Shown in pieces: positions 1-64,000 of a DNA stretch of 64,000 nucleotides (the first letter of the stretch is position 1; every line of letters starts with the position of its first letter). The position numbers and the translations under genes are program-made. The notes under the pieces are model-generated. The model ran no database searches and was not told the origin of the DNA. It saw only the letters and a list, made by a program, of their open reading frames with translations. The stretch lies in the NCBI RefSeq assembly GCF_055900595.2, contig NZ_CM148325.1. One strand, 5' to 3'.

Positions 1-63
1 TCTGCGTCATTCCGGAGTTTATGAGGCACTAAGGCGAACATAAGAGATGGAATGAGCATCTAC
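1..63 (-). ncRNA. glmZ: GlmZ small RNA, 5' portion (gene runs off the window start)
   Basis: Reverse complement of 1..63 reads GTAGATGCTCATTCCATCTCTTATGTTCGCCTTAGTGCCTCATAAACTCCGGAATGACGCAGA, which I recognise as the 5' end of E. coli GlmZ; position upstream of aslA matches the known aslA-hemY intergenic location. Confidence 0.7.
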
Positions 64-487
64 TCGTTTAGTATGCCACAGAGAACCGGGAAATAACATC
101 CCTTAACACTTGTTATGAGATAATTCTGTAATCCTCTTTGCTTCCTGAGTAATAACTTCCTGAGTGAATATTTCTCCTGCGCACGATTCTACACATATAT
201 ATAATGAATAATAAAAGTCATTCAATTAATAATATATATATTAATTGCCATTAAAACTAAAAACAGCATCAATAATCAACGCGATATAACATCACCGCCT
301 TACATATCACCTGCGCCAGAGGTAGGATTGAAAACGCTCTCCTGATTTTCAAATTCATTATCTGGATAAATAAATAATTTATTTTCATCACTATTATTTA
401 TGCAATCATCCTGTCAGGGAGAGGGATCTCAATTATCAATGCTTAATTACGTCAACATTTTGACGACATGAAACCGGAGCATTTTGC

Positions 488-2143
488 ATGGAATTTTCGT
501 TTTCACCCAAACTTCTTGTTGTGGCTGTCGCCGCCGCTCTTCCACTCATGGCCAGCGCAGCAGATACCCCGTCAACCGCCACCGCACGCAAAGGCTTTGC
601 CGGATACGATCACCCAAACCAGTATCTGGTTAAACCGGCGACCACTATTGCCGACAACATGATGCCGGTGATGCAGCATCCTGCACAAGACAAAGAAACC
701 CAGCAGAAGCTGGCGGAATTAGAGAAAAAGACCGGTAAGAAACCGAACGTGGTTGTTTTCTTGCTGGATGATGTGGGCTGGATGGACGTTGGCTTTAACG
801 GCGGCGGCGTGGCGGTGGGTAACCCTACACCAGATATCGACGCCGTTGCCAGCCAGGGGCTGATTTTAACTTCGGCGTATTCTCAACCGAGTTCTTCCCC
901 AACCCGCGCCACGATTCTCACCGGACAATACTCCATCCACCACGGCATTCTGATGCCGCCAATGTACGGGCAACCGGGCGGTCTGCAAGGGTTAACCACT
1001 CTGCCGCAGTTGCTGCACGATCAGGGCTACGTCACCCAGGCCATCGGGAAATGGCATATGGGGGAAAACAAAGAGTCGCAGCCGCAGAACGTTGGCTTTG
1101 ATGATTTCCGCGGCTTTAACTCGGTATCCGATATGTATACCGAATGGCGTGATGTTCATGTCAACCCGGAAGTCGCCCTGAGCCCGGATCGTTCTGAATA
1201 CATCCAAAAACTGCCGTTCAGCAAAGATGACGTTCATGCCGTGCGCGGCGGTGAACAGGAAGCCATTGCCGACATTACGCCGAAATATATGGAAGACCTG
1301 GATCAACGCTGGATGGAATATGGCGTTAAGTTCCTCGACAAGATGGCGAAGAGCGATAAGCCTTTCTTCCTCTACTACGGCACTCGCGGCTGTCACTTCG
1401 ATAACTACCCAAATGCGAAATATGCGGGTAGCTCTCCGGCGCGCACCTCTTACGGCGACTGCATGGTGGAGATGAACGATATCTTCGCCAATCTGTATAA
1501 AGCACTGGAGAAAAACGGTCAGCTTGATAACACGCTGATTGTGTTCACCTCTGATAACGGTCCGGAAGCTGAAGTTCCGCCGCACGGTCGCACGCCGTTC
1601 CGCGGTGCGAAAGGTTCTACATGGGAAGGCGGCGTTCGTGTGCCAACCTTCGTTTACTGGAAAGGGATGATCCAACCGCGTAAATCTGACGGTATTGTCG
1701 ATCTGGCGGATCTCTTCCCTACGGCGCTGGATCTGGCAGGACATCCTGGAGCGAAAGTGGCGAATTTAGTGCCGAAAACCACCTTTATTGATGGTGTGGA
1801 CCAGACATCTTTCTTCCTGGGAACAAATGGTCAGTCTAACCGTAAGGCCGAGCACTACTTCCTCAACGGCAAACTTTCTGCTGTGCGTATGGATGAGTTT
1901 AAATATCACGTACTCATCCAACAGCCATACGCTTATACCCAGAGCGGGTATCAGGGTGGATTCACCGGCACAGTAATGCAAACGGCGGGATCGTCGGTGT
2001 TTAACCTGTACACCGATCCGCAGGAAAGCGACTCTATCGGCGTGCGCCATATCCCAATGGGTGTACCGCTACAGACCGAAATGCACGCGTATATGGAGAT
2101 CCTGAAAAAATATCCGCCGCGCGCGCAGATTAAATCTGATTAA
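488..2143 (+). CDS. aslA: arylsulfatase-like periplasmic sulfatase
   Basis: 551-aa ORF with N-terminal signal peptide ([24 protein letters not shown]) and sulfatase signature S-x-P-x-R ([12 protein letters not shown]); synteny with aslB. Confidence 0.9.
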
Positions 2144-2149
2144 GCCGGC

Positions 2150-2300
2150 GCTATCGCTACATCGGGCCACACTGACCTTGCCGGATGCGGCGTGAACGCC
2201 TTATCCGGCCTACAAGCCTTGCAAATTCAATAAATTGCAGCGTCCTGTAGGCCGGATAAGATGCGTCAGCATCGCATCCGGCAATCAACCGCAGGCGGCC
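2150..2300. repeat. REP/BIME-type palindromic repeat cluster between convergent aslA and aslB
   Basis: Repeated GCCGGATGCGGCGTGAACGCCTTATCCGGCCTAC-like units in both orientations (gccggatgcggcgtgaacgccttatccggcctac ... gtaggccggataagatgcgtcagcatcgcatccggc). Confidence 0.6.
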
Positions 2301-2317
2301 ACAAAATGGCTGCTTTT

Positions 2318-3553
2318 TTACTTATTCACCACCATCAAATGCGCCTGCATAATGTCGCTGGCCGGGCGACCGTGCGCCAGCAAATCAGCCATTGCTTTAA
2401 GATATGGCGGTAGATAGCGGAAATAACGCTGATACCCGGCACACAAATAATTCAGCCCCGGCTTACCGCTGGCATCGAGCATAAAGCGGTGTTTCGGGCA
2501 GCCTCCCCAACATGCTTTTAACACGTTACAACTGCGACACTGCGCCGGTAACTGCTTAAATTTATCTTCTCCAAACACCTGCTGCTGCGGGGAATCTAAC
2601 ATTTCTGCAATTGTTTGCTGAAGCATATTCCCTAGTCGATACTGGGGATAAACATAGTGATCGCAGGCATAAACGTCACCGTTGTGCTCAACAATCACCG
2701 AGCGTCCACAGGTCGGCTGATGATGGCAAACCGCGCCCGGTGCGCCAACAAAATTGGCGAACGCCCATTCGATATTCATTACGAAAATCTTACCGACGTC
2801 GCGCTTAATCCAGTGGTCGAAAATCGCCACCAGAAACTCACCGAACTCATCGGGGCGCACCGACCATTCTGTCAGTTCCCCCTGAATATCACCAGGCGCA
2901 TGTAATTTCAGTCCATTGCGGGCAGCTGTTTCATCAGCCAGGCGCTCCACCACCGGAATAAACTGGATGAACTCCACGCCTGCATTGCACAAAAAATCAT
3001 AAACCTGTAACGGTTGCTGCGCGCTGGTGCGGTTGACACAGACCAGCACGTTATAGTCGACATGATGTTTTTGCAGGAGCGTCAGGGCACGCATCACCAG
3101 CTTATGCGTGGGTCTGCCACCTTTGGTCACGCGATATTGATTGTGGATCTCAGCCGGACCGTCCAGCGATAACCCAACAAGAAAATGATTTTCTGCCAGA
3201 AATGCACACCACTCATCATCAAGCAGCACACCGTTAGTCTGGAAGCTGTTACTTACCTTCCTACCAGCACCATATTTCGCCTGTAGCGCCACGGCACGGC
3301 GGTAAAAATCCAGCCCGAGTAACGTTGGTTCGCCGCCCTGCCAGGTAAAAGCCACTTCGTTTTGGGGTTCGCTGGCAGCGATATAGTGACGGACATACGC
3401 TTCCAGCGTGTCATCGTCCATATGCGCAACTGGCTTTTCGCGGTAAAGGGATTGTTTTTCGAGATAAAAACAGTAGTCACAGTTCAGATTACAATCGGAA
3501 CCGCTTGGTTTCGCCATCACATGAAAAGCACGCGTTGGAACCTGTTGCAGCAT
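2318..3553 (-). CDS. aslB: anaerobic sulfatase-maturating enzyme (radical SAM)
   Basis: ORF with CxxxCxxC radical-SAM motif (CNLNCDYC) and C-terminal Cys clusters; the track ORF (to 3583) is N-terminally extended, start placed at MLQQVPTRAFHVMAKPSG from memory of K-12 AslB. Confidence 0.85.
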   Translation of the reverse strand: MLQQVPTRAFHVMAKPSGSDCNLNCDYCFYLEKQSLYREKPVAHMDDDTLEAYVRHYIAASEPQNEVAFTWQGGEPTLLGLDFYRRAVALQAKYGAGRKVSNSFQTNGVLLDDEWCAFLAENHFLVGLSLDGPAEIHNQYRVTKGGRPTHKLVMRALTLLQKHHVDYNVLVCVNRTSAQQPLQVYDFLCNAGVEFIQFIPVVERLADETAARNGLKLHAPGDIQGELTEWSVRPDEFGEFLVAIFDHWIKRDVGKIFVMNIEWAFANFVGAPGAVCHHQPTCGRSVIVEHNGDVYACDHYVYPQYRLGNMLQQTIAEMLDSPQQQVFGEDKFKQLPAQCRSCNVLKACWGGCPKHRFMLDASGKPGLNYLCAGYQRYFRYLPPYLKAMADLLAHGRPASDIMQAHLMVVNK

Positions 3554-3699: not shown

Positions 3700-3776
3700 T
3701 GGTCGGCGAGAGAGGATTCGAACCTCCGACCCACTGGTCCCAAACCAGTTGCGCTACCAAGCTGCGCTACTCGCCG
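3700..3776 (-). tRNA. proM: tRNA-Pro (anticodon UGG)
   Basis: Reverse complement gives CGGCGAGTAGCGCAGCTTGGTAGCGCAACTGGTTTGGGACCAGTGGGTCGGAGGTTCGAATCCTCTCTCGCCGACCA with cloverleaf and CCA end. Confidence 0.9.
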
Positions 3777-3818
3777 AAATACTGCTTTTTGAATTTTTAG
3801 TTCAATTTTTTAAAGTCG

Positions 3819-3905
3819 TGGTGCGAGGGGGGGGACTTGAACCCCCACGTCCGTAAGGACACTAACACCTGAAGCTAGCGCGTCTACCAATTCCGCCACC
3901 TTCGC
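3819..3905 (-). tRNA. leuT: tRNA-Leu (anticodon CAG), long variable arm
   Basis: Reverse complement gives GCGAAGGTGGCGGAATTGGTAGACGCGCTAGCTTCAGGTGTTAG...CCCCCCCCTCGCACCA, 87 nt. Confidence 0.9.
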
Positions 3906-3925
3906 ATTGTCACAACTTCTAATAA

Positions 3926-4001
3926 TGGGGTGGCTAATGGGATTCGAACCCACGACAACTGGAATCACAATCCAGGGCTCTACCAACTGAGCTATAGCCA
4001 C
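3926..4001 (-). tRNA. hisR: tRNA-His (anticodon GUG)
   Basis: Reverse complement gives GGTGGCTATAGCTCAGTTGGTAGAGCCCTGGATTGTGATTCCAGTTGTCGTGGGTTCGAATCCCATTAGCCACCCCA, including the extra 5' G typical of tRNA-His. Confidence 0.9.
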
Positions 4002-4059
4002 CACTACAAATCTTGTTACGCGGTATTACTACCACCGCAGCTCAAGCGCCGGGACTAAA

Positions 4060-4136
<77 letters not shown>

Positions 4137-4238: not shown

Positions 4239-5624
4239 TTATTCCTCCAGTTTATGCGCTTTACCGTGGCGATTAAGCCCAAAAACTTTATAAATTGCCG
4301 TCACCGCCAGCATAAAGATGATACCGACAAACAGCGACATACGCGTATCTTCATTAAAGTACATGCCGATCAAAACGCAAATCAGGAATGCCATTGTTAC
4401 GTAGTTGGCCCACGGGAACAGGATTGAGCGGAACGGATGGCTGGCAATCGCCGCTTTGTGCGCTCGACGAAAACGCAACTGGCTAATCAAAATCACAAAC
4501 CATGGCACCATCCCCGGAAGCACGCTGGCACTGTAGACATAGACAAACACACGCTGTGGATTGGGAATGATGTAGTTCAGGCATGAGCCAATTAACAGAA
4601 TAGCAATTGATACCGCCACGCCTGCAACCGGAACACCTTGACGGGAAACTTTCGCCATTGCCGCCGGTAACTGACGGTTTTTCGCCAGTGCGTAGAGCAT
4701 ACGTCCACAACTGTACATGCCGCTGTTACAGCCAGAGAGCGCAGCCGTCAGTACCACAAAGTTGATAATACCCGCCGCTGCAGTAATGCCGATTTTGGCG
4801 AAAGTCAGTACGAACGGGCTGCCGTTACTGCCTATTTCATTCCACGGGAAGATGGTGACGATAACGAAAATCGCGCCTACGTAGAAAATCAGGATACGCC
4901 ACAGCACCTTGCCTACGGCACTGCGCAGCGTCACCTGCGGATTCTTCGCTTCACCGGCAGTAATGCCAATCAGCTCCACGCCCTGGTAGGACGCCACCAC
5001 AATACACAATGCGGTCAGGAACCCTTTCCAGCCACCCGCAAAGAAACCGCCATGCTCTGTGAGATTGCTAAAACCAATCGACTGCCCGCCATTGCCAAAG
5101 CCAAAGAAAATCACGCCCAGGCCAATAACAATCATCACGATAATCGTGGTGACTTTGATCATCGCGAACCAGAACTCGATTTCGCCGTACAACCGCACTG
5201 CCGCCAGATTCGCCAGCGCCACCAGCGCCACCGCGATCAATGCGGGTATCCACTGCGCCATCTCCGGGAACCAGAACTGGACATAAACGCCAATGGCGGT
5301 GATTTCTGAGATCCCCACCGCCATCCACATAAACCAGTAAGACCAGGCGGTGAGATAGCCAAAAAACGGGCTCATATAACGATGCGCATAAACGGCGAAC
5401 GAACCGGTAACCGGTTCGAGGAACAACATTTCGCCCATTGAACGCATGATGAAAAAGACAAACAGCCCGGCGATGATATAGGCCAACAATACGGATGGCC
5501 CGGCCCATTTCAGGGTACTGGCGGCCCCCATAAACAGGCCGACGCCAATGGTGCCCCCCAGGGCGATGAGTTCGATATGTCGAGCTTCCAGCCCACGCTG
5601 TAGCTCTGGTTTGTTATCTGCCAT
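4239..5624 (-). CDS. yifK: APC-family amino acid permease
   Basis: 461-aa ORF with 12 predicted hydrophobic segments and amino-acid permease-like sequence; synteny next to the wec cluster. Confidence 0.9.
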
Positions 5625-5814: not shown

Positions 5815-6555
5815 TCAGAGGTTGCCGGTGTAATACCAGCGTAAATAACGCAGCAAACGAAGCTGACGCTTAATGCGGCTCGGCTGCGAAAGCAGGCGGT
5901 AGAGCCACTCCAGCCCCAGCGTTTGCCAGATTTTCGGTGCGCGTTTCACGTGACCGGTGAAAACATCGTAAGTCCCGCCAACGCCCATATACAGCGCATC
6001 CGGATGCACCAGACGGCAGTCGCGCATGAAGATCTCCTGCTTTGGCGATCCCATCGCAACGGTGACGATTTGCGCTCCGCTGGCATGAATGCGTTCAAAC
6101 AGCGCCTGACGCTGCTCGGGTTTAAAATAACCATCCTGACTGCCAACGATATTCACATTCCACTGATTGCGCAGTTTAGCTTCAGTTTGCGCCAGCACTT
6201 CAGGTTTACCGCCCACAAGAAATACCGGCGTCCCTTCTTTGCCTGCGCGCGCCATCAGCTCTTCCCAGAGATCGGCCCCGGCAACGCGGGAAACCTGCGC
6301 CTGCGGGTACTTTTTACGTACTGAACGTACAACGCTGATGCCATCAGCATATTTAAATTCGGCAGCATTAATTAACTCCCTGACCTCGGCGTTATCTTCA
6401 ATGGTCAGCATTTTTTCGGCATTAATGGCAACCAGCGTTCCCTGCTTAAGCTGCCCGTCAGCAAACAGATAATCGAGGGCGTGCTGCATATCACGCCAAC
6501 CAATCAACTGTAAGCCACGCAGCGTATAGGTCGGTGCTGTGGTGTTGTTATTCAT
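5815..6555 (-). CDS. wecG: UDP-N-acetyl-D-mannosaminuronic acid transferase (ECA lipid II synthesis)
   Basis: 246-aa ORF, WecG/TagA-family glycosyltransferase; last gene of the wec cluster. Confidence 0.9.
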
Positions 6556-6557
6556 TG

Positions 6558-7910
6558 TTATCCTTCAACCTGCGTCCGGAGCGATGATTTTGTACGTTTA
6601 TGAATGAGTCCGGCGCTTTCAAAAAGCCAGTACAACAGTTTTGCGATCATCAGACATGCGCCGAAGACCACGATAAAAAAGACCACGCGTGAGACAAACG
6701 AATCCAGCCCTTCACGCGCCAGTACGACCATATTGAAGATCGCCCCGAAGCAGAAACTGTGCAATATCGCAGCCTTATAGCGATTAGTTTCGCGATTGCC
6801 CAGTTCATACAGCCAGTCGAACCATTTGATGATCAGTCCAACCACAATCGCCCCGAGTGGGATGAACAACGCGCCGCCCATAACAACCAGTGAGCCTATA
6901 AGCGTAGGCGAGATCGCCAGCCCGGAGTGGTTATTCAGCACTTCCCAGGTAAAGTAGTTGGCGGAGTTCAGTACCATACTCGGGCGACCCGGCCACAGCC
7001 AGGAAGGGATAAAGACATAGAAATCGCGGACAATGGGAGCCAGGCCCTGGAAGTCGATGTTGTCGTAGTTCTGCAACAGCAACGCCAGATTCTCCCACGG
7101 CGAGAAGGTGTCGCGAGTGAGATAGAGAAACGTATAGAACGCTTCATCGCCGCTCACATTCATTCCATAGCGTTTTAGCGCCAGCCAGAACATGCCCACA
7201 ATCCCCAGCACGCCCGCCGCCGCCAGCATCCACAACGAAATCCAGCCGCGAATAATGCCAATAAACAGGAAGATAGCAAATGCGATGATAATATTGGCGC
7301 GAGTGCCGCCGACAATCATGTAAGTCAGCAAGCCAAAGGCGACCGTGCTGACGAGGAAAAACAGCCACGCTTTGCTGTCCTGGCGCAGAAAGTAGACCAC
7401 CAGCATTGCTGGGATGAAAAAGTAAAAGAAGCGCTTTAACGCCACGCCGGAGACTTCACTGGAGAAGATCTGACTGTAGGAGTTAAGACGGAACAGCAAA
7501 AAACCGTTGTGCATGAAGAAGATGCCGACGCTTACCAACGCAATGCCCATCAGGATCACCCACGTGAGATTGGTCTCCACGCGGTTCATGGTAAACAGCG
7601 GACGGCGCGGTACATCAGCAACGCGTTTGCGTAGGCGGGTTTTGTAGGTGACATAGTAAACCGCGTAGAAGCAGCCCGCAGAAAGCAACGCCTGCAACAA
7701 GATTTCTGGCGGCGCAACACCAACATCAAAGCGAAATACCAGCACGCTGGTCAGCGGAAAGCCGAAGAAAAAGGTGAGCAAAAACAGCAATGAAAAGAAG
7801 ACATTGAAGTTAAAGCGCACACGGCGAAACTCAAACCAGGTCAGCGTGGCAATAAACAACGTGCAGAGCAGCCAGACAACAAACAGGCCACTGAATTGCA
7901 GCAGACTCAT
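6558..7910 (-). CDS. wzyE: ECA polysaccharide polymerase
   Basis: 450-aa highly hydrophobic multi-pass membrane ORF in the conserved wec position; 4-nt overlap with wecF. Confidence 0.9.
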
Positions 7911-8986
7911 GCGACCTCCCCGGCGGCAATCGCCAATGCCCGCTGCCAGCCTTGCAGATAGTTCGGGCTAAAGAAGGCAATGGTGTTTTTATCCACCGAC
8001 GCCAGCTGGCGCTGCGCTTCACGCACAATATCCTCGTTGAGATCGTCGGTAGTAAACAGCACCGGCAAATGCTGTTCCGTCATATCCTGCCAGAACGGAT
8101 TTTCCCGGTTAAGCACACAAGGAATACCCGCCTGAATAAGTAAGCACAGCGTACCAATGCCCTGCTGGCGGGCAAAAATAAAGTAACCGAGATCGCACTG
8201 ACGAAGTAGCGTCAGATAGGCGTCAAATTCCAGTTTTTCGCTCAGAACTTGCAGATTTTCTTCGCTGAATAACGCCAGCCCCGCCTGACGAACTTCCTCG
8301 ATGTACGCTTCGTTATTAGGCGGATATCCCATCGGTACAACCACTTTTACAGTATCGCCAAATTGCTGATGAACGGCGCGTAAGGCGGCGACATGCTCAT
8401 TGCTGCGGTCGCCGGAGTTCCCCACCAGAATGGTCATTTTCCCTTCACGTTGGCGATCGTTCGCCATCGTATTGAGAGAAGGGTCCATCCGCGTCGGGAA
8501 GTACAGCAGTTCGCCCCGCACCTTTGGATGCGTTTTGGCAAAAAAACTCAAATCACCGCGGGTGGCAAATACACAGCCGACTCGCTTTTGCGCCAGGCGA
8601 CGCAACGGGTAAAAAAGCTTATATCTCAAGCCACTGGAAAGCTCATACAGGTCTGCCCCCCAGATATGCCAGAAAAACTGGCTGGGCTTAATGCCACCAC
8701 TCAGCAGAGCCAGCCACAGTTTGGGATTGAACTGACCGTGGAAAAAAAATCGCTGCTGACGGTTAGCTTTTGCTTTCGCGATGACCGCTTCCGCCAGCGA
8801 TTTTTTCCCAGGGAAAAATTGCACAGAAAGCGCCGGACAGCTATCACTTAAGCCGTCGTCCTTGCCAACAACCATAAACTCGCGCGCATGCTCGCTCGTC
8901 GCGGCCAGCACGTCGTTGAAAAACCGCAAAACGGTTTGGTTATGGTGAGGGATATCCGATCCCAGTACGTGAATCAGTACAGTCAT
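7907..8986 (-). CDS. wecF: TDP-Fuc4NAc:lipid II Fuc4NAc transferase
   Basis: 359-aa ORF in the conserved wec position; overlaps wzxE stop/start (translational coupling). Confidence 0.9.
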
Positions 8987-10233
8987 GCCCGCCTACGCCA
9001 GAGTAAAAACACGCCACAACAAAGAGAAAAATAGACGATATAGGTTGCCATATAGGCCTGCGCCGCGCCCAGTGCACCATGCGCAGGGATTAGCCAGTGG
9101 GCAAATACCATCAATAAAGTGAACTGGCTGACTTCCGCCAGAATATAAAACCGCAGTGACGCTTTGGCGATCACCAGATAACCAAAGACATAAGCGCCCA
9201 CTTTTAACACATCACCCACTAACTGCCAGGCAAAGAGATCGCGCATAGCGGTAAATTTATTCGACAACAGCAGCCAGATAGCAAAATCACGCAGCAACCA
9301 GACGGTAAAACTCGCCGCCGCCACTGCCGGTAAGACGAATTTCAGCGATTTAACCACTTCCCGGGTGATATCGCGCTTTTCCGTTAGCCGCGACAACGTG
9401 GGCAGTAAATATACGCTGAACGATGCCGTAATAAATTGCAGGTAGGCATCGGAAATACTGCTCACCCCTTGCCAGATACCCACTTCATCCCAGCTATACT
9501 GCGCCGCCAACAGTTTACGCATCATGATGTACGCAACGGGCAAGGTCACCGACGTAATCAACGCCATGAGCGTAAATTTGCTCAACTGCCCTGCCAGGCC
9601 GTTATCCCAGCAGGGTTTCAGATAGCTTAACGGGATGGCACCACGTTTGATCAACATGATGACGGCAGGAATCACCACCAACGCGGGAATCAGCGCCAGC
9701 CCCAGCAATGCCCCTTCATAACCGCCCAAACGGTAACTGACATAATAAGCAATTACGCCAATCAGGCTGCCGACAATCAGCGATAACGCATTACCTGCAG
9801 CATCGCGAAAGCCTTTCATCAGCGCCAGCAACAGGTTGCCCCAGGCGATCCCCATTTGCACCAGCGCCACTAAACGCACCAGCCCCACATAGTCGGTATT
9901 ACCAAACAATCCCTGGCTAATTGGCGCTGCCGCCAGCACAAAAACCAGCGCCATCAGCGTAGAGAAACCAAGCACCATCGCTGATGAAGTGCCGACCACG
10001 CGGCGCAGCTGCTGCGGATTATCATGGTACTGGGCAACGTATTTGGTTACGCCGTTAAAGATGCCTGCACCAGCAAGCACGCCGAGCACGGTAATCAACT
10101 GGCGGAAATTTGCCGCCAGCCCAAGCCCCGCAGGACCAAATGACACCGCCAGCAACTTACCGACTAGTAACCCGGCACCAATCTTGACCAGTGTACTGGC
10201 CGCCGTCCACAAGGACGCTTTTGCCAACGACAT
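8983..10233 (-). CDS. wzxE: ECA lipid III flippase (Wzx family)
   Basis: 416-aa polytopic membrane ORF, Wzx/MOP-type flippase features; synteny. Confidence 0.9.
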
Positions 10234-10234
10234 A

Positions 10235-11365: not shown

Positions 11366-11369
11366 GTGA

Positions 11370-53023: not shown

Positions 53024-53035
53024 TTTTTTCTCCAT

Positions 53036-53053
53036 CAGCGAAACGTTTCGCTG
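53036..53053. promoter_or_regulatory. candidate RbsR operator (perfect 18-bp palindrome)
   Basis: cagcgaaacgtttcgctg is a perfect inverted repeat of the LacI/PurR-family half-site type, 13 bp upstream of the rbsD start codon. Confidence 0.5.
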
Positions 53054-53145
53054 ACCCGCAGTTTAATCCTGACTGAGTTGGGAAAACCATCGTGACGTTA
53101 CGGAAATGTGATCAACATCGAAACGTTTTACATGGTGATTAACCA

Positions 53146-53182
53146 TGAAAACAAAAACGCCCCCTTATGGAGAAAGGAGGCG
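53146..53182 (-). terminator. candidate terminator downstream of kup
   Basis: Minus-strand hairpin (acgcc...ggcgt) followed by ttttgtttt. Confidence 0.4.
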
Positions 53183-53189
53183 TCTGGCG

Positions 53190-55058
53190 TTAAATTTCGA
53201 CCTGAGTACCCAGTTCGATAACCCTGTTTGGCGGGATTTCAAATTGATCCGGTGCGCGCAGCGCATTACGTTGCAACAGCAAATACAGCTTGCCGCGCAA
53301 ACGCAAATACCACGGACGTTTGCCGAGGATCAGTGATTCATGCGACATAAAGAAGGAGGTTTCCATCATCCGGCAACTTAACCCTTCCAGACCACAGCGG
53401 TGGAAAACTTCTTCCACGTTTGGCGTTTCCCGCCATCCATAACTTGCCACCACGCGCCAGAAAGTGGACGACAGTTGTTCAATCTGTACCCGACGGACGT
53501 TATGGACATATGGCGCGTCTTCAGTGCGCAGAGTTAACAGAATCACCCGCTCATGCAACACCTTGTTATGTTTCAGGTTATGCATCAGTGCAAAGGGAAT
53601 GACGTTGATTGCACGCGACATATACACCGCGGTCCCTGGCACGCGAACGGGCGGTGATTTCTCCAGCGAAGCAATCATCGCTTCCAGAGAGTTGCCATGT
53701 TCATGCATCCGCCGCAGCAAGCGGAAACGCTCGCTCTTCCAGGTAGTCATCACGATAAACATTACCGTACCGAGACTCAGTGGCAACCAGCCGCCGGAGA
53801 GCAGTTTATCGAGGTTAGCGGTGAACAATGGAATATCAACACAAAGGAAAGCAATCAGGATCAGCGCAACAAAATACTTATTCCAGTGCCAGTTCTGACG
53901 TGCCACAGTAGTTGAGAGAATAGACGTCAGTACCATGGTTCCGGTCACCGCAATCCCGTACGCCGCCGCCAGGTTGCTGGAGTGCTCAAAGCTGACAATC
54001 ACAATCACGACCGCGACATAGAGCATCCAGTTCACAAACGGAATATAGATTTGCCCTGACTCCATTTCGGAGGTGTGAATAATGCGCATCGGCGACAAAT
54101 ATCCCAGACGTACCGCCTGACGCGTCAATGAGAAGACGCCAGAAATAACCGCCTGCGAGGCAATTACCGTCGCCAGTGCGGCGATGATCAGCAGCGGGAT
54201 CAGCGCCCAGTCCGGTGCCAACAGGAAGAACGGGTTCTTAATTGCTTCCGGGTTCTTTAACAACAGAGCGCCCTGGCCAAAGTAATTAAGAGTTAATGAA
54301 GGCAATACGACGGTGAACCACACCAGGCGAATCGGGAACTTACCAAAGTGCCCCATATCAGCGTACAGCGCCTCGACACCGGTAATCGACAGCACCACTG
54401 CCCCTAACGCAATAAACGAAACCGTTTTATATTCAAGGAAGAAATGCACCGCCCACATCGGATTCAACGCATGCAGTACTTCCGGGTTAGCAATAATGCT
54501 ACGCACCCCCAGTCCCGCCAGAATCAAAAACCAGGTCAGCATGATAGGCGCAAACAGCTTACCGACCATAGCAGTGCCATGTTTTTGAATCATAAATAGT
54601 AAAGTCAGAACGATGATTGAGAGGGGAACTATCCAGGTATCCAGCTGCGGAGCGACGATTTCCAGACCTTCAATGGCAGACATCACCGAAATAGCGGGTG
54701 TTATGACGACTTCACCATAGAAAAAGCTGCCGCCGATTAGCCCCATAATAACCAGCATTGATGTCGTTCGCGCCGACGTATTACGCCCGGCAAGCGACAT
54801 CAACGTCAGAATGCCCCCTTCCCCGGCGTTATCTGCCCGCATCACGAAGGTGAGATATTTAATGGAAACCACAAAGATTAGCAGCCAGAAGATCAGCGAT
54901 AAAAAGCCAAACACGGCATCGCGTTCAACGCCAAAACCAAACTGGCCGGACAAACATTCACGAAGTGTATATAACGGGCTGGTACCAATATCGCCGTAGA
55001 CAACTCCAATCGCCGCGAGGGTAATCGCGGGCAACGATTGCTTATTATCAGTGCTCAT
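53190..55058 (-). CDS. kup: low-affinity K+ uptake transporter (KUP family)
   Basis: 622-aa [35 protein letters not shown]... with 12 TM N-terminal domain and cytoplasmic C-terminal domain. Confidence 0.97.
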
Positions 55059-55280
55059 AGACTAGTCTTTCGTTGAAATATGAAATGTGTGCTTAGTCCC
55101 TTGGCCCACAAAAAAGCGCACAGTATGCACGATTAACGACAAAATCGTACTCCTAAATGCGGCCACATTAACCTGGCTCAAAGAAAAATAGACCTCTTTT
55201 GAGACTATTTTAGCCACCAGCAAGAAACGTCTATACTCGCAATTTACGCAGAACTTTTGACGAAAGGACGCCACTTCATT

Positions 55281-56777
55281 ATGGCTCACCCTCATTTATT
55301 AGCGGAAAGAATTTCCCGCCTGAGCAGTTCGTTGGAAAAGGGGCTTTATGAACGTAGCCACGCCATCCGCTTGTGTTTATTAGCGGCATTAAGTGGTGAA
55401 AGTGTGTTCCTCCTTGGCCCGCCAGGCATTGCCAAAAGTTTGATCGCCCGGCGCTTAAAATTCGCCTTTCAGAATGCCCGCGCGTTTGAATATCTGATGA
55501 CCCGCTTCTCCACGCCGGAAGAAGTTTTTGGTCCCCTTTCTATTCAGGCGCTAAAAGATGAAGGGCGCTATGAACGTTTAACCAGCGGTTACCTGCCGGA
55601 AGCAGAAATCGTCTTTCTGGATGAGATCTGGAAAGCGGGCCCGGCAATTCTTAATACCTTGCTCACCGCCATTAACGAGCGCCAGTTCCGTAACGGTGCA
55701 CACGTAGAAAAAATCCCGATGCGTCTGCTGGTGGCGGCCTCCAACGAGCTGCCGGAAGCAGACAGCAGTCTGGAAGCGTTATATGACCGCATGCTGATTC
55801 GTCTGTGGTTAGATAAAGTGCAGGATAAAGCGAATTTCCGCTCCATGCTGACCAGTCAACAGGATGAAAATGACAATCCGGTTCCTGCCTCCTTGCAGGT
55901 CACTGATGAAGAATATGAACGCTGGCAGAAAGAGATTGGTGAAATTACGCTGCCCGATCATGTATTTGAGCTGATTTTTATGCTGCGCCAGCAACTGGAT
56001 AAATTACCGGATGCGCCTTATGTCTCGGATCGTCGCTGGAAAAAAGCGATCCGCTTATTGCAGGCCAGCGCCTTTTTTAGCGGTCGCAGTGCTGTTGCCC
56101 CGGTAGATCTCATTTTGCTGAAAGATTGCCTGTGGTATGACGCGCAAAGCCTGAATTTGATACAACAACAAATTGATGTATTGATGACCGGTCATGCCTG
56201 GCAACAGCAAGGGATGTTGACCCGCCTGGGCGCGATTGTGCAACGTCACCTGCAACTACAGCAGCAACAAAGCGATAAAACAGCCTTAACGGTAATTCGT
56301 CTGGGCGGCATTTTCAGCCGTCGTCAGCAGTATCAACTCCCTGTTAACGTTACTGCTTCCAATCTGACTCTGCTGCTGCAAAAACCGTTAAAACTGCATG
56401 ATATGGAAGTGGTTCATATCTCCTTTGAGCGTAGCGCGCTGGAACAGTGGCTGAGCAGAGGTGGTGAAATTCGCGGCAAACTGAACGGTATCGGCTTTGC
56501 CCAGAAACTGAATCTGGAAGTTGATAGCGCCCAACATCTTGTCGTACGCGATGTAAGTTTACAAGGCAGTACGCTGGCACTTCCCGGTTCATCGGCTGAA
56601 GGTCTGCCAGGTGAAATAAAACAACAACTGGAAGAGCTTGAAAGCGACTGGCGCAAGCAACACGCTTTATTCAGCGAACAGCAAAAATGTCTGTTTATCC
56701 CAGGCGACTGGTTAGGTCGCATTGAAGCCAGCCTACAGGATGTCGGCACCCAGATTCGCCAGGCACAACAATGCTAA
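55281..56777 (+). CDS. ravA: MoxR-family AAA+ ATPase RavA
   Basis: Start placed at [21 protein letters not shown] (498 aa); Walker A GPPGIAKS, Walker [10 protein letters not shown]. Confidence 0.95.
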
Positions 56778-58222
56778 CGCTGGATACGCTTAATGTGATG
56801 CTGGCCGTCAGCGAAGAGGGATTGATCGAAGAGATGATCATCGCGCTGCTGGCCTCACCGCAGCTGGCAGTCTTCTTTGAAAAATTCCCACGACTGAAGG
56901 CGGCAATCACTGATGATGTTCCCCGCTGGCGTGAGGCGCTTCGCAGTCGGCTGAAAGATGCCCGAGTCCCGCCGGAACTCACCGAAGAGGTGATGTGCTA
57001 TCAGGAAAGCCAGCTCCTCTCCACGCCGCAGTTTATTGTGCAGCTACCACAGATCCTGGACTTACTGCATCGTCTGAATTCCCCATGGGCAGAACAAGCC
57101 CGACAGTTGGTTGATGCTAACAGCACGATCACTTCAGCGTTACACACACTTTTTCTCCAGCGTTGGCGTTTAAGTCTGATCGTGCAAGCAACGACGTTAA
57201 ATCAACAGCTATTAGAAGAAGAACGCGAACAACTGTTGAGTGAAGTTCAGGAACGCATGACGCTGAGCGGGCAACTTGAACCGATTCTCGCAGATAACAA
57301 TACCGCAGCTGGTCGTCTGTGGGATATGAGCGCCGGTCAGCTTAAACGTGGCGACTATCAGTTGATTGTGAAATACGGTGAATTTCTTAACGAACAGCCG
57401 GAACTGAAACGCCTGGCAGAACAGTTGGGGCGTTCCCGGGAAGCCAAATCAATACCGCGCAACGATGCGCAGATGGAAACCTTCCGTACCATGGTGCGCG
57501 AACCGGCGACCGTTCCTGAGCAGGTTGATGGACTGCAACAAAGCGACGATATTTTACGCCTTCTACCACCGGAATTGGCGACGCTGGGGATAACGGAACT
57601 GGAATATGAGTTTTATCGTCGGCTGGTGGAAAAACAATTGCTCACCTATCGCCTTCACGGTGAGTCGTGGCGTGAAAAAGTGATCGAACGCCCGGTAGTT
57701 CATAAAGATTACGACGAACAGCCGCGCGGACCGTTTATTGTCTGCGTGGATACTTCCGGCTCAATGGGCGGCTTTAATGAACAGTGTGCGAAAGCGTTCT
57801 GTCTGGCATTGATGCGCATAGCCCTCGCTGAAAACCGGCGCTGCTATATTATGCTATTTTCCACCGAGATCGTCCGTTATGAGCTTTCAGGCCCACAAGG
57901 TATTGAGCAAGCGATCCGCTTTTTAAGTCAGCAGTTTCGTGGTGGCACCGATCTTGCCAGTTGTTTCCGCGCCATTATGGAACGCTTGCAAAGCCGGGAA
58001 TGGTTTGATGCCGATGCGGTGGTGATTTCTGATTTTATCGCCCAGCGGTTGCCTGATGATGTGACGAGCAAAGTGAAAGAGTTGCAGCGGGTACATCAGC
58101 ATCGCTTTCATGCCGTGGCGATGTCGGCACATGGCAAACCCGGCATCATGCGCATTTTCGATCATATCTGGCGCTTTGATACCGGGATGCGAAGCCGCCT
58201 GCTCAGACGCTGGCGGCGATAA
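56771..58222 (+). CDS. viaA: von Willebrand factor A-domain protein ViaA
   Basis: 483-aa ORF with C-terminal VWA/MIDAS motif (VCVDTSGSM); 7-nt overlap with ravA. Confidence 0.95.
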
Positions 58223-58226
58223 ACAA

Positions 58227-59219
58227 TTACAGCAGAGAAGGGACGCTCTCGCGAACAGCAGTAGGCCATACACCACACTGAACCTGACCGATATGTGGTA
58301 GTTGCAACAGCAGCATGGTCAAACGAGACTGGCCGATACCGCCGCCAATGGTCTGCGGCATTTCACCGCGCAGCAGCGCCTGATGCCACTCCAGCTGCAG
58401 GCGATCTTCGTCACCGGTCAGCGCCAGCTGATGCTTCAACGTTTCGGCATCCACGCGAATCCCCATGGAAGAAAGCTCAAACGCATCTTCCAGTACCGGG
58501 TTCCACACCAGAATATCGCCGTTCAAACCCGCATGGCCCAGCTCTGACGGGGTGCTCCAGTCATCATAATCCGGTGCGCGCACGTCGTGACGATGACCAT
58601 CACTCAACTTGCCGCCAATCCCGACGAGGAATACCGCGCCAAGATCTTTCGCAATCGCCCGCTCACGTCCTTTGGCATCGAGATCCGGATAACGAGCCAG
58701 TAACTCCTGGCTGTGTACGAAGTGGATCTGATCCGGCAGGAACGGTGCCAGGCCAAACTCTTCGCTAACTGCAGCTTCGGTTGCTTTAATTCCCGCCCAG
58801 ATCGCCTCTACCGTGCTTTTCAGAGTCGAGAATTGACGCTCGCCGTCGCCCATTACGCGTTCCCAGTCCCACTGGTCAACATAGACCGAGTGCAACGGGG
58901 AAAGACGGTCTTCATCGGGGCGAAGGGCTTTCATGTGCGTGTACAGCCCTTCGCCTGCGCTGAAGTCGTGTTGCCCTAAGGTCTGACGTTTCCACTTCGC
59001 CAGTGAATGAACCACTTCGAACTGGGCATCAGGCAGAGCTTTCACTTTTACCTGCACCGCTTTTTCACAGCCCGACAAGTTATCCTGCGTGCCATCCCCC
59101 ACACGGCTAAGAATCGGCGCCTGGACTTCAATCAGCCCCAGACGTTCTTCCAGTTGACGAGAAAAGTGAGATTTCACGAAGCTAATTTGACGTTGTTTGG
59201 CAATGTAAGCGGTTTTCAT
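58227..59219 (-). CDS. asnA: aspartate-ammonia ligase (asparagine synthetase A)
   Basis: 330-aa [51 protein letters not shown]... Confidence 0.97.
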
Positions 59220-59370
59220 TTTTTATACTCCTGCGTCCTGTTGCTTATGATTAAGCAACAAAAACCGACACACATGCAATAATCATTCAATAAAAAGCCT
59301 CATGCACTTTTGATTCATTAAAAAATAGGGCTAAAATAGAATGAATCATCAATCCGCATAAGAAAATCCT

Positions 59371-59829
59371 ATGGAAAATTATCTGATCGACAATCTGGAC
59401 CGTGGCATCCTGGAAGCATTAATGGGCAATGCGCGCACCGCTTACGCCGAACTGGCGAAACAATTTGGCGTCAGTCCGGGGACAATTCACGTTCGAGTAG
59501 AGAAAATGAAGCAGGCGGGGATCATTACCGGGGCACGTATTGATGTCAGCCCGAAGCAGCTCGGTTATGACGTAGGCTGCTTTATCGGCATTATATTAAA
59601 GAGCGCCAAAGACTATCCTTCCGCGCTGGCAAAGCTGGAAAGCCTCGATGAAGTCACTGAAGCCTATTACACAACTGGCCACTACAGCATCTTTATCAAA
59701 GTGATGTGCCGTTCGATCGATGCTCTCCAGCATGTACTTATCAACAAGATCCAAACAATTGATGAAATTCAGTCCACCGAGACATTGATCGTCCTGCAGA
59801 ACCCGATCATGCGTACCATCAAGCCCTGA
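59371..59829 (+). CDS. asnC: Lrp/AsnC-family transcriptional regulator AsnC
   Basis: 152-aa ORF with N-terminal HTH (ARTAYAELAKQFGVSPGTIHVRVEKM) and RAM domain; divergent from asnA. Confidence 0.97.
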   Translation: MENYLIDNLDRGILEALMGNARTAYAELAKQFGVSPGTIHVRVEKMKQAGIITGARIDVSPKQLGYDVGCFIGIILKSAKDYPSALAKLESLDEVTEAYYTTGHYSIFIKVMCRSIDALQHVLINKIQTIDEIQSTETLIVLQNPIMRTIKP

Positions 59830-59850
59830 TCGGCTTTTTTAATCCCATAC

Positions 59851-59890
59851 TTTTCCACAGGTAGATCCCAACGCGTTCACAGCGTACAAT
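59851..59890 (+). promoter_or_regulatory. mioC promoter region with DnaA box
   Basis: TTTTCCACA DnaA-box-like 9-mer (59851..59859) upstream of a TACAAT -10-like hexamer (59885..59890) before mioC. Confidence 0.55.
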
Positions 59891-59918
59891 ACGCCACTCT
59901 TAATAAAGGTGGCGGTTT

Positions 59919-60362
59919 ATGGCAGATATCACTCTTATCAGCGGCAGCACCCTCGGCGGTGCCGAATATGTAGCAGAACACCTGGCTGAAAAGCTGGAAG
60001 AGGCGGGTTTTACCACCGAAACGCTGCACGGTCCGCTGTTGGAAGATTTATCTGCCTCTGGGATCTGGCTGGTTATCAGCTCAACCCACGGTGCCGGAGA
60101 TATTCCGGACAACCTTTCTCCTTTCTATGAAGCATTGCAGGAACAGAAGCCCGATCTTTCTGCGGTCCGCTTTGGCGCAATCGGTATTGGTAGTCGTGAA
60201 TATGACACCTTTTGTGGGGCTATCGATAAACTCAAGGCAGAACTCAAAAATTCCGGTGCAAAACAGACAGGCGAAACACTGAAGATCAACATCCTTGATC
60301 ACGAAATTCCGGAAGATCCGGCAGAAGAATGGCTGGGATCGTGGATTAATTTACTCAAATAA
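59919..60362 (+). CDS. mioC: flavodoxin-like FMN protein MioC
   Basis: 147-aa ORF MADITLISGSTLGGAEYVAEHLAEKLEEAGF... (flavodoxin fold), transcribed toward oriC. Confidence 0.95.
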   Translation: MADITLISGSTLGGAEYVAEHLAEKLEEAGFTTETLHGPLLEDLSASGIWLVISSTHGAGDIPDNLSPFYEALQEQKPDLSAVRFGAIGIGSREYDTFCGAIDKLKAELKNSGAKQTGETLKINILDHEIPEDPAEEWLGSWINLLK

Positions 60363-60384
60363 GTATACAGATCGTGCGATCTAC

Positions 60385-60652
60385 TGTGGATAACTCTGTC
60401 AGGAAGCTTGGATCAACCGGTAGTTATCCAAAGAACAACGGTTGTTCAGTTTTTGAGTTGTGTATAACCCCTCATTCTGATCCCAGCTTATACGGTCCAG
60501 GATCACCGATCATTCACAGTTAATGATCCTTTCCAGGTTGTTGATCTTAAAAGCCGGATCCTTGTTATCCACAGGGAAGTGCGATCCTAATAAGAGATCA
60601 CAATAGAACAGATCTCTAAATAAATAGATCTTCTTTTTAATACCCAGGATCC
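60385..60652. other. oriC: chromosomal replication origin oriC
   Basis: Reverse complement of canonical E. coli oriC: DnaA boxes R4 (60385..60393 tgtggataa), R3 (60424..60432), R2 (60459..60467), R5/M (60510..60518), R1 (60565..60573 ttatccaca); three AT-rich 13-mers at 60587..60599, 60602..60614, 60618..60630; 13 GATC sites; BamHI site ggatcc at 60647..60652. Confidence 0.97.
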
Positions 60653-60740
60653 CAGGTCTTTCTCAAGCCGACAAAGTTGAGTAGAATCCACGGCCCGGGC
60701 TTCAATCCATTTTCATACCGCGTTATGCGAGGCAATCACC

Positions 60741-62630
60741 ATGTTTTATCCGGATCCTTTTGACGTCATCATCATTGGCGGGGGTCATGCAGGCACCGAG
60801 GCCGCGATGGCCGCGGCGCGTATGGGTCAACAGACTCTGCTTTTGACACACAATATCGACACGCTGGGGCAGATGAGCTGCAACCCGGCGATCGGCGGTA
60901 TTGGGAAGGGACATCTGGTAAAAGAAGTGGATGCACTCGGCGGTCTGATGGCGAAAGCGATCGATCAGGCGGGTATCCAGTTTAGGATACTAAACGCAAG
61001 CAAGGGACCGGCAGTTCGCGCTACCCGAGCTCAGGCGGATCGTGTGCTCTACCGTCAGGCAGTACGTACGGCGCTGGAGAATCAACCGAATCTGATGATC
61101 TTCCAGCAGGCGGTTGAAGATCTTATTGTCGAAAATGATCGCGTGGTCGGTGCTGTTACCCAAATGGGACTGAAGTTCCGTGCCAAAGCCGTCGTGCTCA
61201 CCGTTGGGACGTTCCTCGACGGTAAAATTCATATCGGTCTGGATAACTACAGCGGTGGCCGTGCTGGTGATCCGCCGTCCATTCCGCTCTCTCGCCGTTT
61301 GCGTGAACTGCCGCTGCGCGTTGGTCGTCTGAAAACCGGGACACCGCCGCGTATTGATGCGCGTACTATCGACTTCAGCGTGCTGGCGCAACAGCATGGC
61401 GATAACCCAATGCCGGTATTCTCGTTTATGGGCAATGCGTCCCAGCATCCACAGCAGGTGCCGTGTTATATCACTCATACCAACGAGAAAACCCATGATG
61501 TGATCCGCAGTAACCTCGATCGTAGCCCAATGTACGCAGGGGTGATCGAAGGTGTCGGCCCACGCTACTGTCCGTCGATCGAAGACAAAGTCATGCGCTT
61601 CGCCGACAGAAATCAGCATCAGATCTTCCTTGAACCGGAAGGGCTGACCTCTAACGAAATTTATCCGAACGGTATCTCCACCAGCCTGCCGTTCGATGTG
61701 CAGATGCAAATCGTCCGCTCCATGCAGGGGATGGAAAACGCGAAGATCGTGCGTCCGGGATATGCCATTGAGTATGACTTCTTCGATCCACGCGACCTGA
61801 AACCGACGCTGGAGAGCAAGTTTATCCAGGGGCTGTTCTTTGCTGGTCAGATTAACGGCACTACCGGTTATGAAGAAGCCGCTGCGCAAGGTTTGTTGGC
61901 CGGTCTTAACGCTGCCCGTCTGTCTGCTGACAAAGAAGGTTGGGCTCCGGCGCGTTCTCAGGCGTATCTCGGCGTACTGGTTGATGACCTGTGCACTTTA
62001 GGAACCAAAGAACCGTATCGTATGTTTACCTCGCGCGCAGAATATCGTCTGATGCTGCGCGAAGATAATGCGGATCTGCGTTTGACTGAAATTGGTCGTG
62101 AACTGGGCCTGGTGGATGACGAACGTTGGGCGCGCTTTAACGAGAAACTTGAGAATATCGAGCGTGAGCGTCAGCGTCTGAAATCGACCTGGGTAACCCC
62201 GTCGGCGGAAGCTGCAGCCGAAGTGAATGCTCACCTGACTGCGCCGCTTTCCCGTGAAGCCAGTGGTGAAGATCTGCTGCGTCGTCCGGAAATGACTTAT
62301 GAAAAATTAACCATGCTGACGCCGTTTGCCCCTGCGTTGACAGACGAACAGGCGGCGGAACAGGTTGAGATTCAGGTTAAATACGAAGGTTACATTGCGC
62401 GCCAGCAAGATGAGATCGAAAAGCAGCAGCGTAACGAGAATACCTTGCTGCCAGCGACGCTGGATTACCGCCAGGTATCCGGTCTTTCTAACGAAGTGAT
62501 CGCCAAACTTAACGATCACAAACCGGCTTCTATCGGTCAGGCTTCGCGTATTTCTGGCGTCACGCCTGCTGCCATCTCCATTCTGCTGGTGTGGCTAAAA
62601 AAACAGGGTATGCTGCGTCGTAGCGCATAA
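60741..62630 (+). CDS. mnmG: tRNA uridine-5-carboxymethylaminomethyl modification enzyme MnmG (GidA)
   Basis: 629-aa ORF with N-terminal FAD-binding [10 protein letters not shown] motif. Confidence 0.97.
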
Positions 62631-62693: not shown

Positions 62694-63317
62694 GTGCTCA
62701 ACAAACTCTCCTCACTGCTGAAAGACGCAGGAATTTCGCTTACCGATCACCAGAAAAACCAGCTTATTGCCTACGTGAATATGCTGCATAAGTGGAATAA
62801 AGCGTACAACCTGACTTCGGTCCGCGATCCTAATGAGATGCTGGTACGCCATATTCTCGATAGCATTGTGGTGGCACCGTATCTGCAAGGTGAACGGTTT
62901 ATCGATGTCGGCACCGGACCAGGACTGCCTGGCATTCCACTCTCTATCGTGCGTCCTGAAGCCCATTTCACGTTGTTGGATAGCCTTGGTAAACGCGTGC
63001 GTTTCCTTCGTCAGGTGCAACATGAGCTTAAACTGGAGAATATTGAGCCAGTACAGAGCAGGGTAGAAGAGTTTCCATCAGAGCCGCCCTTTGATGGCGT
63101 AATTAGCCGCGCCTTTGCCTCTTTGAACGATATGGTGAGCTGGTGCCACCATCTTCCTGGTGAGCAAGGTCGTTTCTACGCGCTGAAAGGCCAAATACCG
63201 GAAGATGAAATCGCTTTGTTGCCCGAAGAATATCAGGTCGAATCAGTGGTTAAACTTCACGTTCCGGCCCTGGATGGCGAACGTCATCTGGTGGTGATTA
63301 AAGCAAATAAAATTTAA
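62694..63317 (+). CDS. rsmG: 16S rRNA m7G527 methyltransferase RsmG (GidB)
   Basis: 207-aa ORF with SAM-binding [12 protein letters not shown] motif; immediately downstream of mnmG. Confidence 0.95.
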
Positions 63318-63402
63318 TTTTTATCAAAAAAAACATAAAAAAATGACCGGTTAGACTGTTAACAACAACCAGGTTTTCTACTGATATAACTGGTTACATT
63401 TA

Positions 63403-63448
63403 ACGCCACGTTCACTCTTTTGCATCAACGAGCTAACGTGGCTTTTTT
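63403..63448 (+). terminator. candidate terminator downstream of rsmG
   Basis: Inverted repeat gccacgtt...aacgtggc followed by TTTTTTGG. Confidence 0.45.
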
Positions 63449-63814
63449 GGGTAAGCAGAAAATAAGTCAGCAGTGAAAATATCAGGCTGCTAAAAATCGG
63501 CGCTAAGAACCATAATCATCTGTTAAAACATTATTAAAAATGTCAATGGGTGGTTTTTGTTGTGTAAATGTCACTTATTAAAAGAGTGTCTGTTTTTGGA
63601 CTTAAATATCATAAACTTGCAATGGCATCATTTGCCAAGTAAATAAATATGCTGTGCGCGAACATGCTCAATATGTGATCTGAAGCACGCTTTATCGCCA
63701 GTGTTTACGCGTTATTTACAGTTTTTCATGATCGAACAGCGTTAGCAGAAAAGTCGCAATTGTATGCACTGGAAAAATATTTAAACATTTATTCACCTTT
63801 TGGCTACTTATTGT

Positions 63815-63842
63815 TTGAAATCACGGGGGCGCACCGTATAAT
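63815..63842 (+). promoter_or_regulatory. candidate atp operon promoter
   Basis: TTGAAA (63815..63820) - 16 nt - TATAAT (63837..63842), about 90 nt upstream of atpI. Confidence 0.5.
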
Positions 63843-63933
63843 TTGACCGCTTTTTGATGCTTGACTCTAAGCCTTAAAGAAAGTTTTATACGACACGCGG
63901 CATACCTCGAAGGGAGCAGGAGTGAAAAACGTG

Positions 63934-64000
63934 ATGTCTGTGTCGCTCGTGAGTCGAAACGTTGCTCGGAAGCTTCTGCTCGTTCAGTTACTGGTGGTGA
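63934..64000 (+). CDS. atpI: ATP synthase protein I, N-terminal fragment (runs off window end)
   Basis: ATG at 63934 followed by MSVSLVSRNVARKLLLVQLLVV, matching the N-terminus of AtpI. Confidence 0.8.
   Translation, partial: MSVSLVSRNVARKLLLVQLLVV

Follow-up and report, generated by a model that had tools for sequence, protein, structure and literature searches.

Why do most genes beside this replication origin point the same way, and what accounts for the exceptions? The locus in question is a stretch of 64,000 nucleotides from contig NZ_CM148325.1 (NCBI RefSeq assembly GCF_055900595.2), hereafter the window, which is the clockwise-replichore side of the Escherichia coli origin oriC together with 3.3 kb of the other side. 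An earlier note, made from the sequence alone, had described gene orientation left of oriC as strongly co-directional with replication, interrupted by a defined set of head-on genes. Minus-strand genes left of oriC are co-directional because the leftward fork moves toward lower coordinates; plus-strand genes in this part are head-on. Co-directional rRNA and tRNA operons and highly expressed genes have reportedly been described since Brewer in 1988 (as cited in PMC7451550). We conclude that the strand distribution of the window is very probably this known replication-associated gene-strand bias, in which heavy or long RNA polymerase (RNAP) traffic runs with the fork.

It is the identity of oriC itself that firmly anchors fork direction. 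The origin extends from 60385 to 60630, between the end of mioC (60362) and the start of mnmG (60741). It contains the DnaA boxes R4 (60385-60393, minus strand), R3 (an R3-like TTATCCAAA at 60424-60432), R2 (60459-60467, minus strand) and R1 (60565-60573, plus strand), and three AT-rich 13-mers (GATCTnTTnTTTT) adjoin R1 as the unwinding element at 60587-60630, namely R (60587-60599), M (60602-60614) and L (60618-60630). The DnaA box consensus TTATNCACA has six matches in the 64-kb window, three of them within approximately 190 bp at oriC. There are 13 GATC (Dam/SeqA) sites in the 278 bp from 60363 to 60640, compared with a window mean of 4.7 per kb, and the densest 300-bp GATC stretch of the whole window is oriC. 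When aligned with MG1655, the origin and its flanks are identical at 389 of 391 bases (two substitutions), and the annotated K-12 origin_of_replication feature maps to 60399-60630. The same R1 to R4 boxes, L/M/R 13-mers and GATC cluster between mioC and mnmG are found in enterobacterial oriC. Boxes, 13-mers, GATC sites and K-12 identity agree with the origin position of 60.4 kb given earlier, which is right to approximately 0.2 kb: 60.4 kb marks the edge toward mioC, and unwinding starts at approximately 60.6 kb. No gene changes class despite this shift, because the interval 60363-60740 does not contain any gene. Firing from approximately 60.6 kb in this strain is predicted from identity to the experimentally defined K-12 origin.

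Annotation from the Prokaryotic Genome Annotation Pipeline (PGAP) was mapped onto the window, and all annotated protein-coding sequences (CDSs) proved to be intact open reading frames (ORFs). Independently, Rfam and ARAGORN detected the 16S, 23S and 5S rRNA genes, seven tRNA genes and the 5' part of GlmZ, every one of which is encoded on the minus strand. Left of oriC, 45 of the 59 annotated genes are on the minus strand (76%) and 14 are on the plus strand; the minus strand also carries 74% (74.5%) of the genic bases, and among CDSs only the ratio is 35 to 14 (71% minus). Right of oriC, mnmG, rsmG and atpI are all on the plus strand, as had been claimed, and thus three of three are co-directional with the rightward fork. 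The head-on set comprises aslA, rhlB, gppA, yifN, ppiC, ilvY, yifB/comM, hdfR, yieP, hsrA/mdtD, ravA, viaA, asnC and mioC. The earlier note had assigned the correct strand to every gene it named, and its head-on list was complete (14 of 14); absent from it were the co-directional rep, aslB, thrP/yifK, maoP/yifE, rhoL and partial glmZ. Counted per gene, the excess is significant by a binomial test, both relative to 50% (P=3e-5) and relative to the genome-wide figure of 55% (P=6e-4). Because genes of the same operon are not independent of one another, however, the per-gene count overstates the statistical evidence.

Expression data support a contrast between the two classes wherever such data could be found. 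All 10 stable-RNA genes are co-directional, and so is every protein we looked up that is given at 1,000 copies per cell or more among the entries listed in Table S2 of Ishihama 2008 (PMC2292177): Rho (4450), RbsB (4630), TrxA (2660) and AsnA (1160). The same entries include co-directional proteins of lower abundance, namely IlvC (471), IlvE (453) and IlvD (117), and the head-on proteins MioC (613), RhlB (241) and ViaA (117). GppA, AsnC, IlvY, RavA, HdfR, YifB, YieP, YieO, AslA and PpiC were not found among the listed entries, and neither was the co-directional Rep; the table describes the cytosolic proteome, and absence from the listed entries need not mean that a protein was undetected. Proteome mass fractions in Mori 2021 (PMC8144880), in values covering gene names a to m, are 1.0e-2 (approximately 1%) for ilvC, 7e-4 for ilvE and 3.3e-4 for asnA on the co-directional side, versus 1.3e-4 for mioC, 6e-5 for gpp, 3.5e-5 for hdfR, 2.6e-5 for ilvY and 0 for asnC on the head-on side. 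The codon adaptation index (CAI), a rough proxy calculated here with weights after the Sharp and Li 1987 table, is in weak agreement, with a median of 0.352 for co-directional and 0.315 for head-on genes (Mann-Whitney P=0.04). The four highest values belong to ilvC, trxA, rho and ilvE, which are all co-directional.

The arrangement is also stable in evolution. Gene order and orientation in the window are the reverse complement of MG1655 approximately 3,922,374-3,986,494, collinear gene for gene at 96-97% identity. In E. coli, 58000-64000 was matched by megablast in 5,424 of 5,426 complete genomes, and collinearity above 99% was observed for the three segments queried: genomes carrying the segment in one same-strand place numbered 5422 of 5426 for 1-25000, 5415 of 5426 for 25001-39300 and 5396 of 5426 for 44900-60400, with 39301-44899, including rrnC, outside the queries. 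A scan for exact matches to the oriC block of M and R 13-mers identified 68 species-representative genomes from approximately 20 genera of the Enterobacteriaceae. Each locus was oriented on oriC, and flanking genes were placed by tblastn, with counts referring to loci long enough for the gene. On the left of oriC, kup (17/17) and asnA (55/55) were on the minus strand, and ravA (31/31), viaA (44/44), asnC (57/57) and mioC (60/60) were on the plus strand. On the right, mnmG (57/57) and rsmG (38/38) were on the plus strand. Thus, the order kup(-) ravA-viaA(+) asnA(-) asnC-mioC(+) oriC mnmG-rsmG(+) had no exception in 68 species across the approximately 10 kb around oriC that this comparison covers; the distal part, 0-53 kb, was compared within E. 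coli. This comparison with other Enterobacteriaceae origin regions, which had been proposed as a check, indicates that the head-on genes are as old and stable as the co-directional ones and are not recent inversions.

How does the window compare with its surroundings? In K-12, the mirror 60 kb across oriC has 40 of 59 genes co-directional (68%), and the adjoining 50 kb, farther from oriC on the replichore of the window, has 34 of 50 (68%). Window and controls combined, approximately 170 kb around oriC, give 119 of 168 (71%), compared with 55% genome-wide in E. coli (PMC7451550). The pattern is therefore in line with what had been expected for an origin-proximal region. The window shares with the K-12 gene-strand bias the co-directional rrnC, tRNA operons and highly expressed genes, but its local 76% exceeds the average. 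Numerically, this value is similar to the 75% of Bacillus subtilis. The PolC-linked genome-wide bias of the Bacillota is a separate phenomenon, however, whereas the E. coli value is local and arises from a few long operons.

These observations can be combined as follows. Bidirectional replication would start at the unwinding element at approximately 60.6 kb, so that the minus strand to the left would be the leading strand. Units with heavy or long-lasting RNAP traffic, that is, rrnC, two clusters of tRNA genes, the rho, trxA and ilvC genes, and three long operons (ilv, wec and rbs), would be transcribed along the direction of fork travel, and co-orientation would avoid head-on collisions between replisome and RNAP. 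Head-on units are short, with no more than two genes and 2.9 kb, and would generally be weakly expressed, such that their orientation may cost little and may persist. Three head-on regulators, ilvY, asnC and hdfR, share a control region with a co-directional target or neighbor (ilvC, asnA and maoP, respectively), and they probably lie head-on because they are divergent from it. Origin, orientations, expression contrast and evolutionary stability were observed here directly; a causal role of selection against such collisions is inferred from the literature, in which co-orientation is attributed to selection against head-on encounters of replisome and RNAP at essential units and at those transcribed heavily or over a long stretch, and short weak units are regarded as tolerated (PMC7451550, PMC11040001). 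All E. coli rRNA operons are co-directional, and inversion of an rRNA operon to head-on is deleterious (PMC7451550, PMC11040001).

Several observations weigh against this reading. Counted per transcription unit, there are approximately 15 co-directional and 12 head-on units, which is not significant (P=0.35), and random unit orientation reaches the base fraction of 74.5% at P=0.058, or 0.11 with a prior of 55%. The wec genes have a CAI of 0.24-0.42 and kup of 0.28, which is low to middling, and by codon usage wec and kup are unlikely to be highly expressed. On the head-on side, ppiC (0.46) and aslA (0.41) have a fairly high CAI and do not look weak. On the mirror side in K-12, rpmH-rnpA-yidD-yidC-mnmE and tnaCAB are head-on; there, a 16-gene head-on block at 3,884,026-3,895,218 includes, besides the highly inducible tnaCAB, the ribosomal protein gene rpmH and two essential genes, rnpA and yidC. 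The hemCDXY and fadBA genes are also head-on in the K-12 control regions. From these cases it follows that an equation of head-on with dispensable or weakly expressed is local and not general.

Some of the original wording consequently has to be narrowed. As a description of 76% of the genes, strongly co-directional is apt, but it rests on a few long operons and does not hold up at the operon level (15:12) within this window alone. The statement that highly expressed units are on the minus strand holds for the stable RNAs and for the proteins of at least 1,000 copies, and not for wec and kup by CAI. The rbs operon is sugar-inducible, and among rbs proteins only RbsB stands out. Similarly, describing the head-on genes as mostly regulators or low-expression genes agrees with the measured proteins, which do not exceed 613 copies, but only 4 of the 14 are regulators (ilvY, hdfR, yieP and asnC), and the CAI of ppiC and aslA is fairly high.

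Might essentiality, and not expression level, keep genes co-directional? In a model that is said to go back to Rocha and Danchin in 2003, whose work is cited in PMC11040001, selection acts on the cost of truncating essential transcripts. The co-directional genes of the window include the essential rho and the likewise essential single-copy tRNA genes hisR, trpT and proM, and no classic essential gene is known among the 14 head-on genes. Most co-directional genes of the window, among them wec, rbs, ilv, kup, asnA and aslB, are dispensable, however, and the essential rpmH, rnpA and yidC on the mirror side and the essential hemC and hemD in the next segment are head-on. We therefore regard essentiality as a possible but rather doubtful driver.

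A similarly tentative place is given to operon length as the main driver. Reportedly proposed by Price, Alm and Arkin in 2005 in a paper that PMC7451550 cites, this model of expression interruption holds that long operons are struck more often per transcript and are thus pushed to the leading strand. All four units of at least 3 kb are co-directional, namely wec (12.8 kb), ilv (6.6 kb), rbs (5.9 kb) and rrnC (5.2 kb), and the orientation bias in the window is carried by these four operons. The longest head-on unit, ravA-viaA, measures 2.9 kb compared with the co-directional maximum of 12.8 kb. Overall, however, the difference in unit length between the classes is not significant in the window (Mann-Whitney P=0.16), and the short, highly expressed trxA, tRNA operon and rhoL-rho are co-directional as well. 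The 27 transcription units of the window are too few for an operon-level test or for separating expression, essentiality and operon-length models.

It is unlikely that unit orientation is effectively random and that the 76% merely results from four long minus-strand operons. The unit count and base fraction given above would be compatible with chance, and four of four long units have a probability of 1/16 by chance. On the other hand, all stable-RNA genes and all proteins measured at 1,000 copies or more are co-directional, two neighboring control regions reach 68% compared with 55% genome-wide, the arrangement is frozen across approximately 20 genera, and the genome-wide significance of the bias is established in the literature (PMC7451550).

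Alternatively, genes could be head-on for a positive reason, be it faster evolution, a need for transcription toward oriC in the case of mioC, or a shared regulatory region. In favor of this, ravA-viaA, asnC and mioC are head-on without exception across 68 species, three head-on regulators are divergent from a co-directional target or neighbor, and the sequence geometry is such that mioC transcription reads into oriC. The invariance is equally expected from a mere lack of inversions, however, and the co-directional neighbors are just as invariant. Earlier work reportedly found mioC and gid transcription to be dispensable for chromosomal initiation. Mutation-selection balance has been argued to be sufficient (review PMC7451550). 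We consider a positive reason improbable. It is also improbable that the asnC-mioC and ravA-viaA head-on blocks are kept by selection and not by inertia; if this were true, transcription toward oriC could shape local supercoiling, initiation timing or the passage of the leftward fork through its first kilobases. As a separate and equally improbable point, the co-orientation of the approximately 170 kb around oriC (71% versus 55%) may go further than operon structure would explain.

The co-directional pattern had also been proposed as an internal consistency check on the annotation. Gene calls and strands are indeed reliable, but the check is partly circular, since skew and Chi sites track the coding strand. 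Cumulative GC skew declines along the window until approximately 60 kb, where it turns upward. In co-directional (+0.049) and head-on genes (+0.056) alike, G is in excess on the coding strand at third codon positions, and the replication component of skew over all third positions is approximately 0; third-position GC skew was therefore rejected as a replication signal. At four-fold degenerate sites, the skew is +0.129 +/- 0.015 for co-directional and +0.074 +/- 0.026 for head-on genes, corresponding to a coding-strand component of approximately 0.10 and a weak replication component of approximately 0.03 +/- 0.015. Intergenic skew (-0.02) is not significant. Chi sites (GCTGGTGG) left of oriC number 15 on the minus and 2 on the plus strand, and 16 of the 17 coincide with the coding strand of the gene in which they lie. 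Their density does not differ significantly between the classes (14 in 35.8 kb co-directional versus 2 in 14.4 kb head-on, estimated P of approximately 0.12), and Chi was rejected as an independent polarity marker because it is confounded with gene orientation. FtsK-orienting polar sequences (KOPS, GGGNAGGG) were too few to use: left of oriC there are three on the minus strand and none on the plus strand, and right of it a single plus-strand site. We also rejected as uninformative the observation that head-on blocks start at divergent promoters, given that divergent and convergent arrangements necessarily alternate from one strand switch to the next; only the three known regulator pairs are excepted. 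In a short window, skew and Chi mostly follow the coding strand and thus do not constitute an independent check on orientation.

The closest genome to the window is that of E. coli strain E200086 (NZ_CM128605.1, 5071645-5135644), with 99.95% identity over the full window and 31 differing positions (29 substitutions and 2 single-base gaps). Of these differences, 20 are in rrnC (40798-44798), two of them 1-bp indels in the 23S gene; gene conversion among rrn copies could explain this cluster, as could assembly differences. Relative to K-12 there are only strain-level differences. For example, ilvG and yifN are intact in the window and pseudogenes in K-12, and approximately 59 bp are absent from the window at the ilvY/ilvA junction.

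Beginning at the distal end, the co-directional units, all on the minus strand, are the 5' part of the small RNA (sRNA) gene glmZ (1-63; Rfam RF00083 and K-12 annotation), aslB (2318-3553), the argX-hisR-leuT-proM tRNA operon (3700-4136), thrP/yifK (4239-5624), the 12-gene, 12.8-kb enterobacterial common antigen (ECA) cluster wecA-wzzE-wecBC-rffGHC-wecE-wzxE-wecF-wzyE-wecG (5815-18595), rhoL-rho (18835-20280), trxA (20421-20750) and the gene of the Rep helicase (23814-25835). On the plus strand, and thus head-on, are aslA (488-2143), rhlB (20881-22146), gppA (22282-23766), yifN (26052-26501) and ppiC (26653-26934). A palindromic repetitive extragenic palindrome (REP)-like element at 2178-2284, between the convergent aslA and aslB, also aligns to K-12 in inverted orientation, and part of it (2180-2215) recurs elsewhere, including in one plasmid record. 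The segment 1-25000, tRNA genes included, has a median of approximately 30 matching places per E. coli genome. The intact yifN encodes a PemK/MazF-like protein of 149 amino acids with a PemK/MazF toxin domain (Pfam E=7.5e-11); no annotated antitoxin gene adjoins it, the neighbors being rep upstream and ppiC downstream.

In the central part, ilvC (26980-28455), the 6.6-kb ilvL-ilvX-ilvGMEDA operon (29494-36049), maoP/yifE (37948-38286) and the 5.2-kb rrnC operon, rrsC-gltU-rrlC-rrfC-aspT-trpT (39340-44566), are on the minus strand and co-directional. Head-on, on the plus strand, are the LysR-type regulator genes ilvY (28607-29497) and hdfR (38405-39244), divergent from ilvC and maoP, respectively, and yifB/comM (36402-37922). 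The ilvG gene (34165-35811, minus strand) is intact with 548 codons, whereas K-12 carries the classic ilvG frameshift pseudogene. The convergent ilvA and ilvY overlap by their stop codons in one TTAA (29494-29497), compared with a spacer of 51 bp in K-12, and the absence of approximately 59 bp at this junction leaves no room for an intergenic terminator. The ilvC-ilvY segment (26975-29493) is 92.7% identical to K-12, in comparison to 96-97% in its flanks, which suggests, from the sequence comparison, a recombinant or divergent allele. For 25001-39300, 308 E. coli genomes are in the 90-95% identity band. In the 118-bp maoP/hdfR spacer, an exact copy of CTAATACTCCGCGCCAT, which we take to be the 17-bp maoS site of the MaoP/maoS literature, is located at 38321-38337 on the minus strand, with a chance expectation of 0.01 per window. 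Three Rfam leader or sRNA matches are all co-directional: Rev39_5p_UTR (35831-36120, minus strand) over the ilvL leader and attenuator, the trxA 5' untranslated region (UTR) thermometer (20721-20820), and StyR-44 (42678-42786, minus strand) directly upstream of the 23S gene in rrnC.

Toward the origin, the 5.9-kb rbsDACBKR operon (47155-53023), kup (53190-55058) and asnA (58227-59219) are on the minus strand and co-directional. Head-on, on the plus strand, are yieP-hsrA (45047-47189; hsrA is mdtD in PGAP), ravA-viaA (55281-58222), the regulator gene asnC (59371-59829), which is divergent from asnA, and mioC (59919-60362), which is transcribed toward oriC and against the leftward fork. The 3' ends of the convergent hsrA and rbsR overlap by 35 bp (47155-47189), and K-12 has the same overlap. 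The K-12 strain HMS174 covers only 26% of 44900-60400, from yieP to oriC, and an insertion sequence (IS) transposase of IS5 is annotated at the junction; this gap looks like an IS-mediated deletion that removed the rbs-kup region. Beyond oriC, mnmG/gidA (60741-62630), rsmG/gidB (62694-63317) and the 5' part of atpI (63934-64000) are on the plus strand and co-directional with the rightward fork.

In conclusion, two lessons of method emerge: operons, not genes, are the independent units in strand counts, and GC skew and Chi polarity in a short window cannot independently check gene orientation. The pattern itself is textbook biology that is already known, with nothing novel. Its value is mainly one of quality control, in that the window is a canonical E. 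coli oriC region with reliable gene calls and strands, in which gene orientation follows the long-established co-orientation rule.

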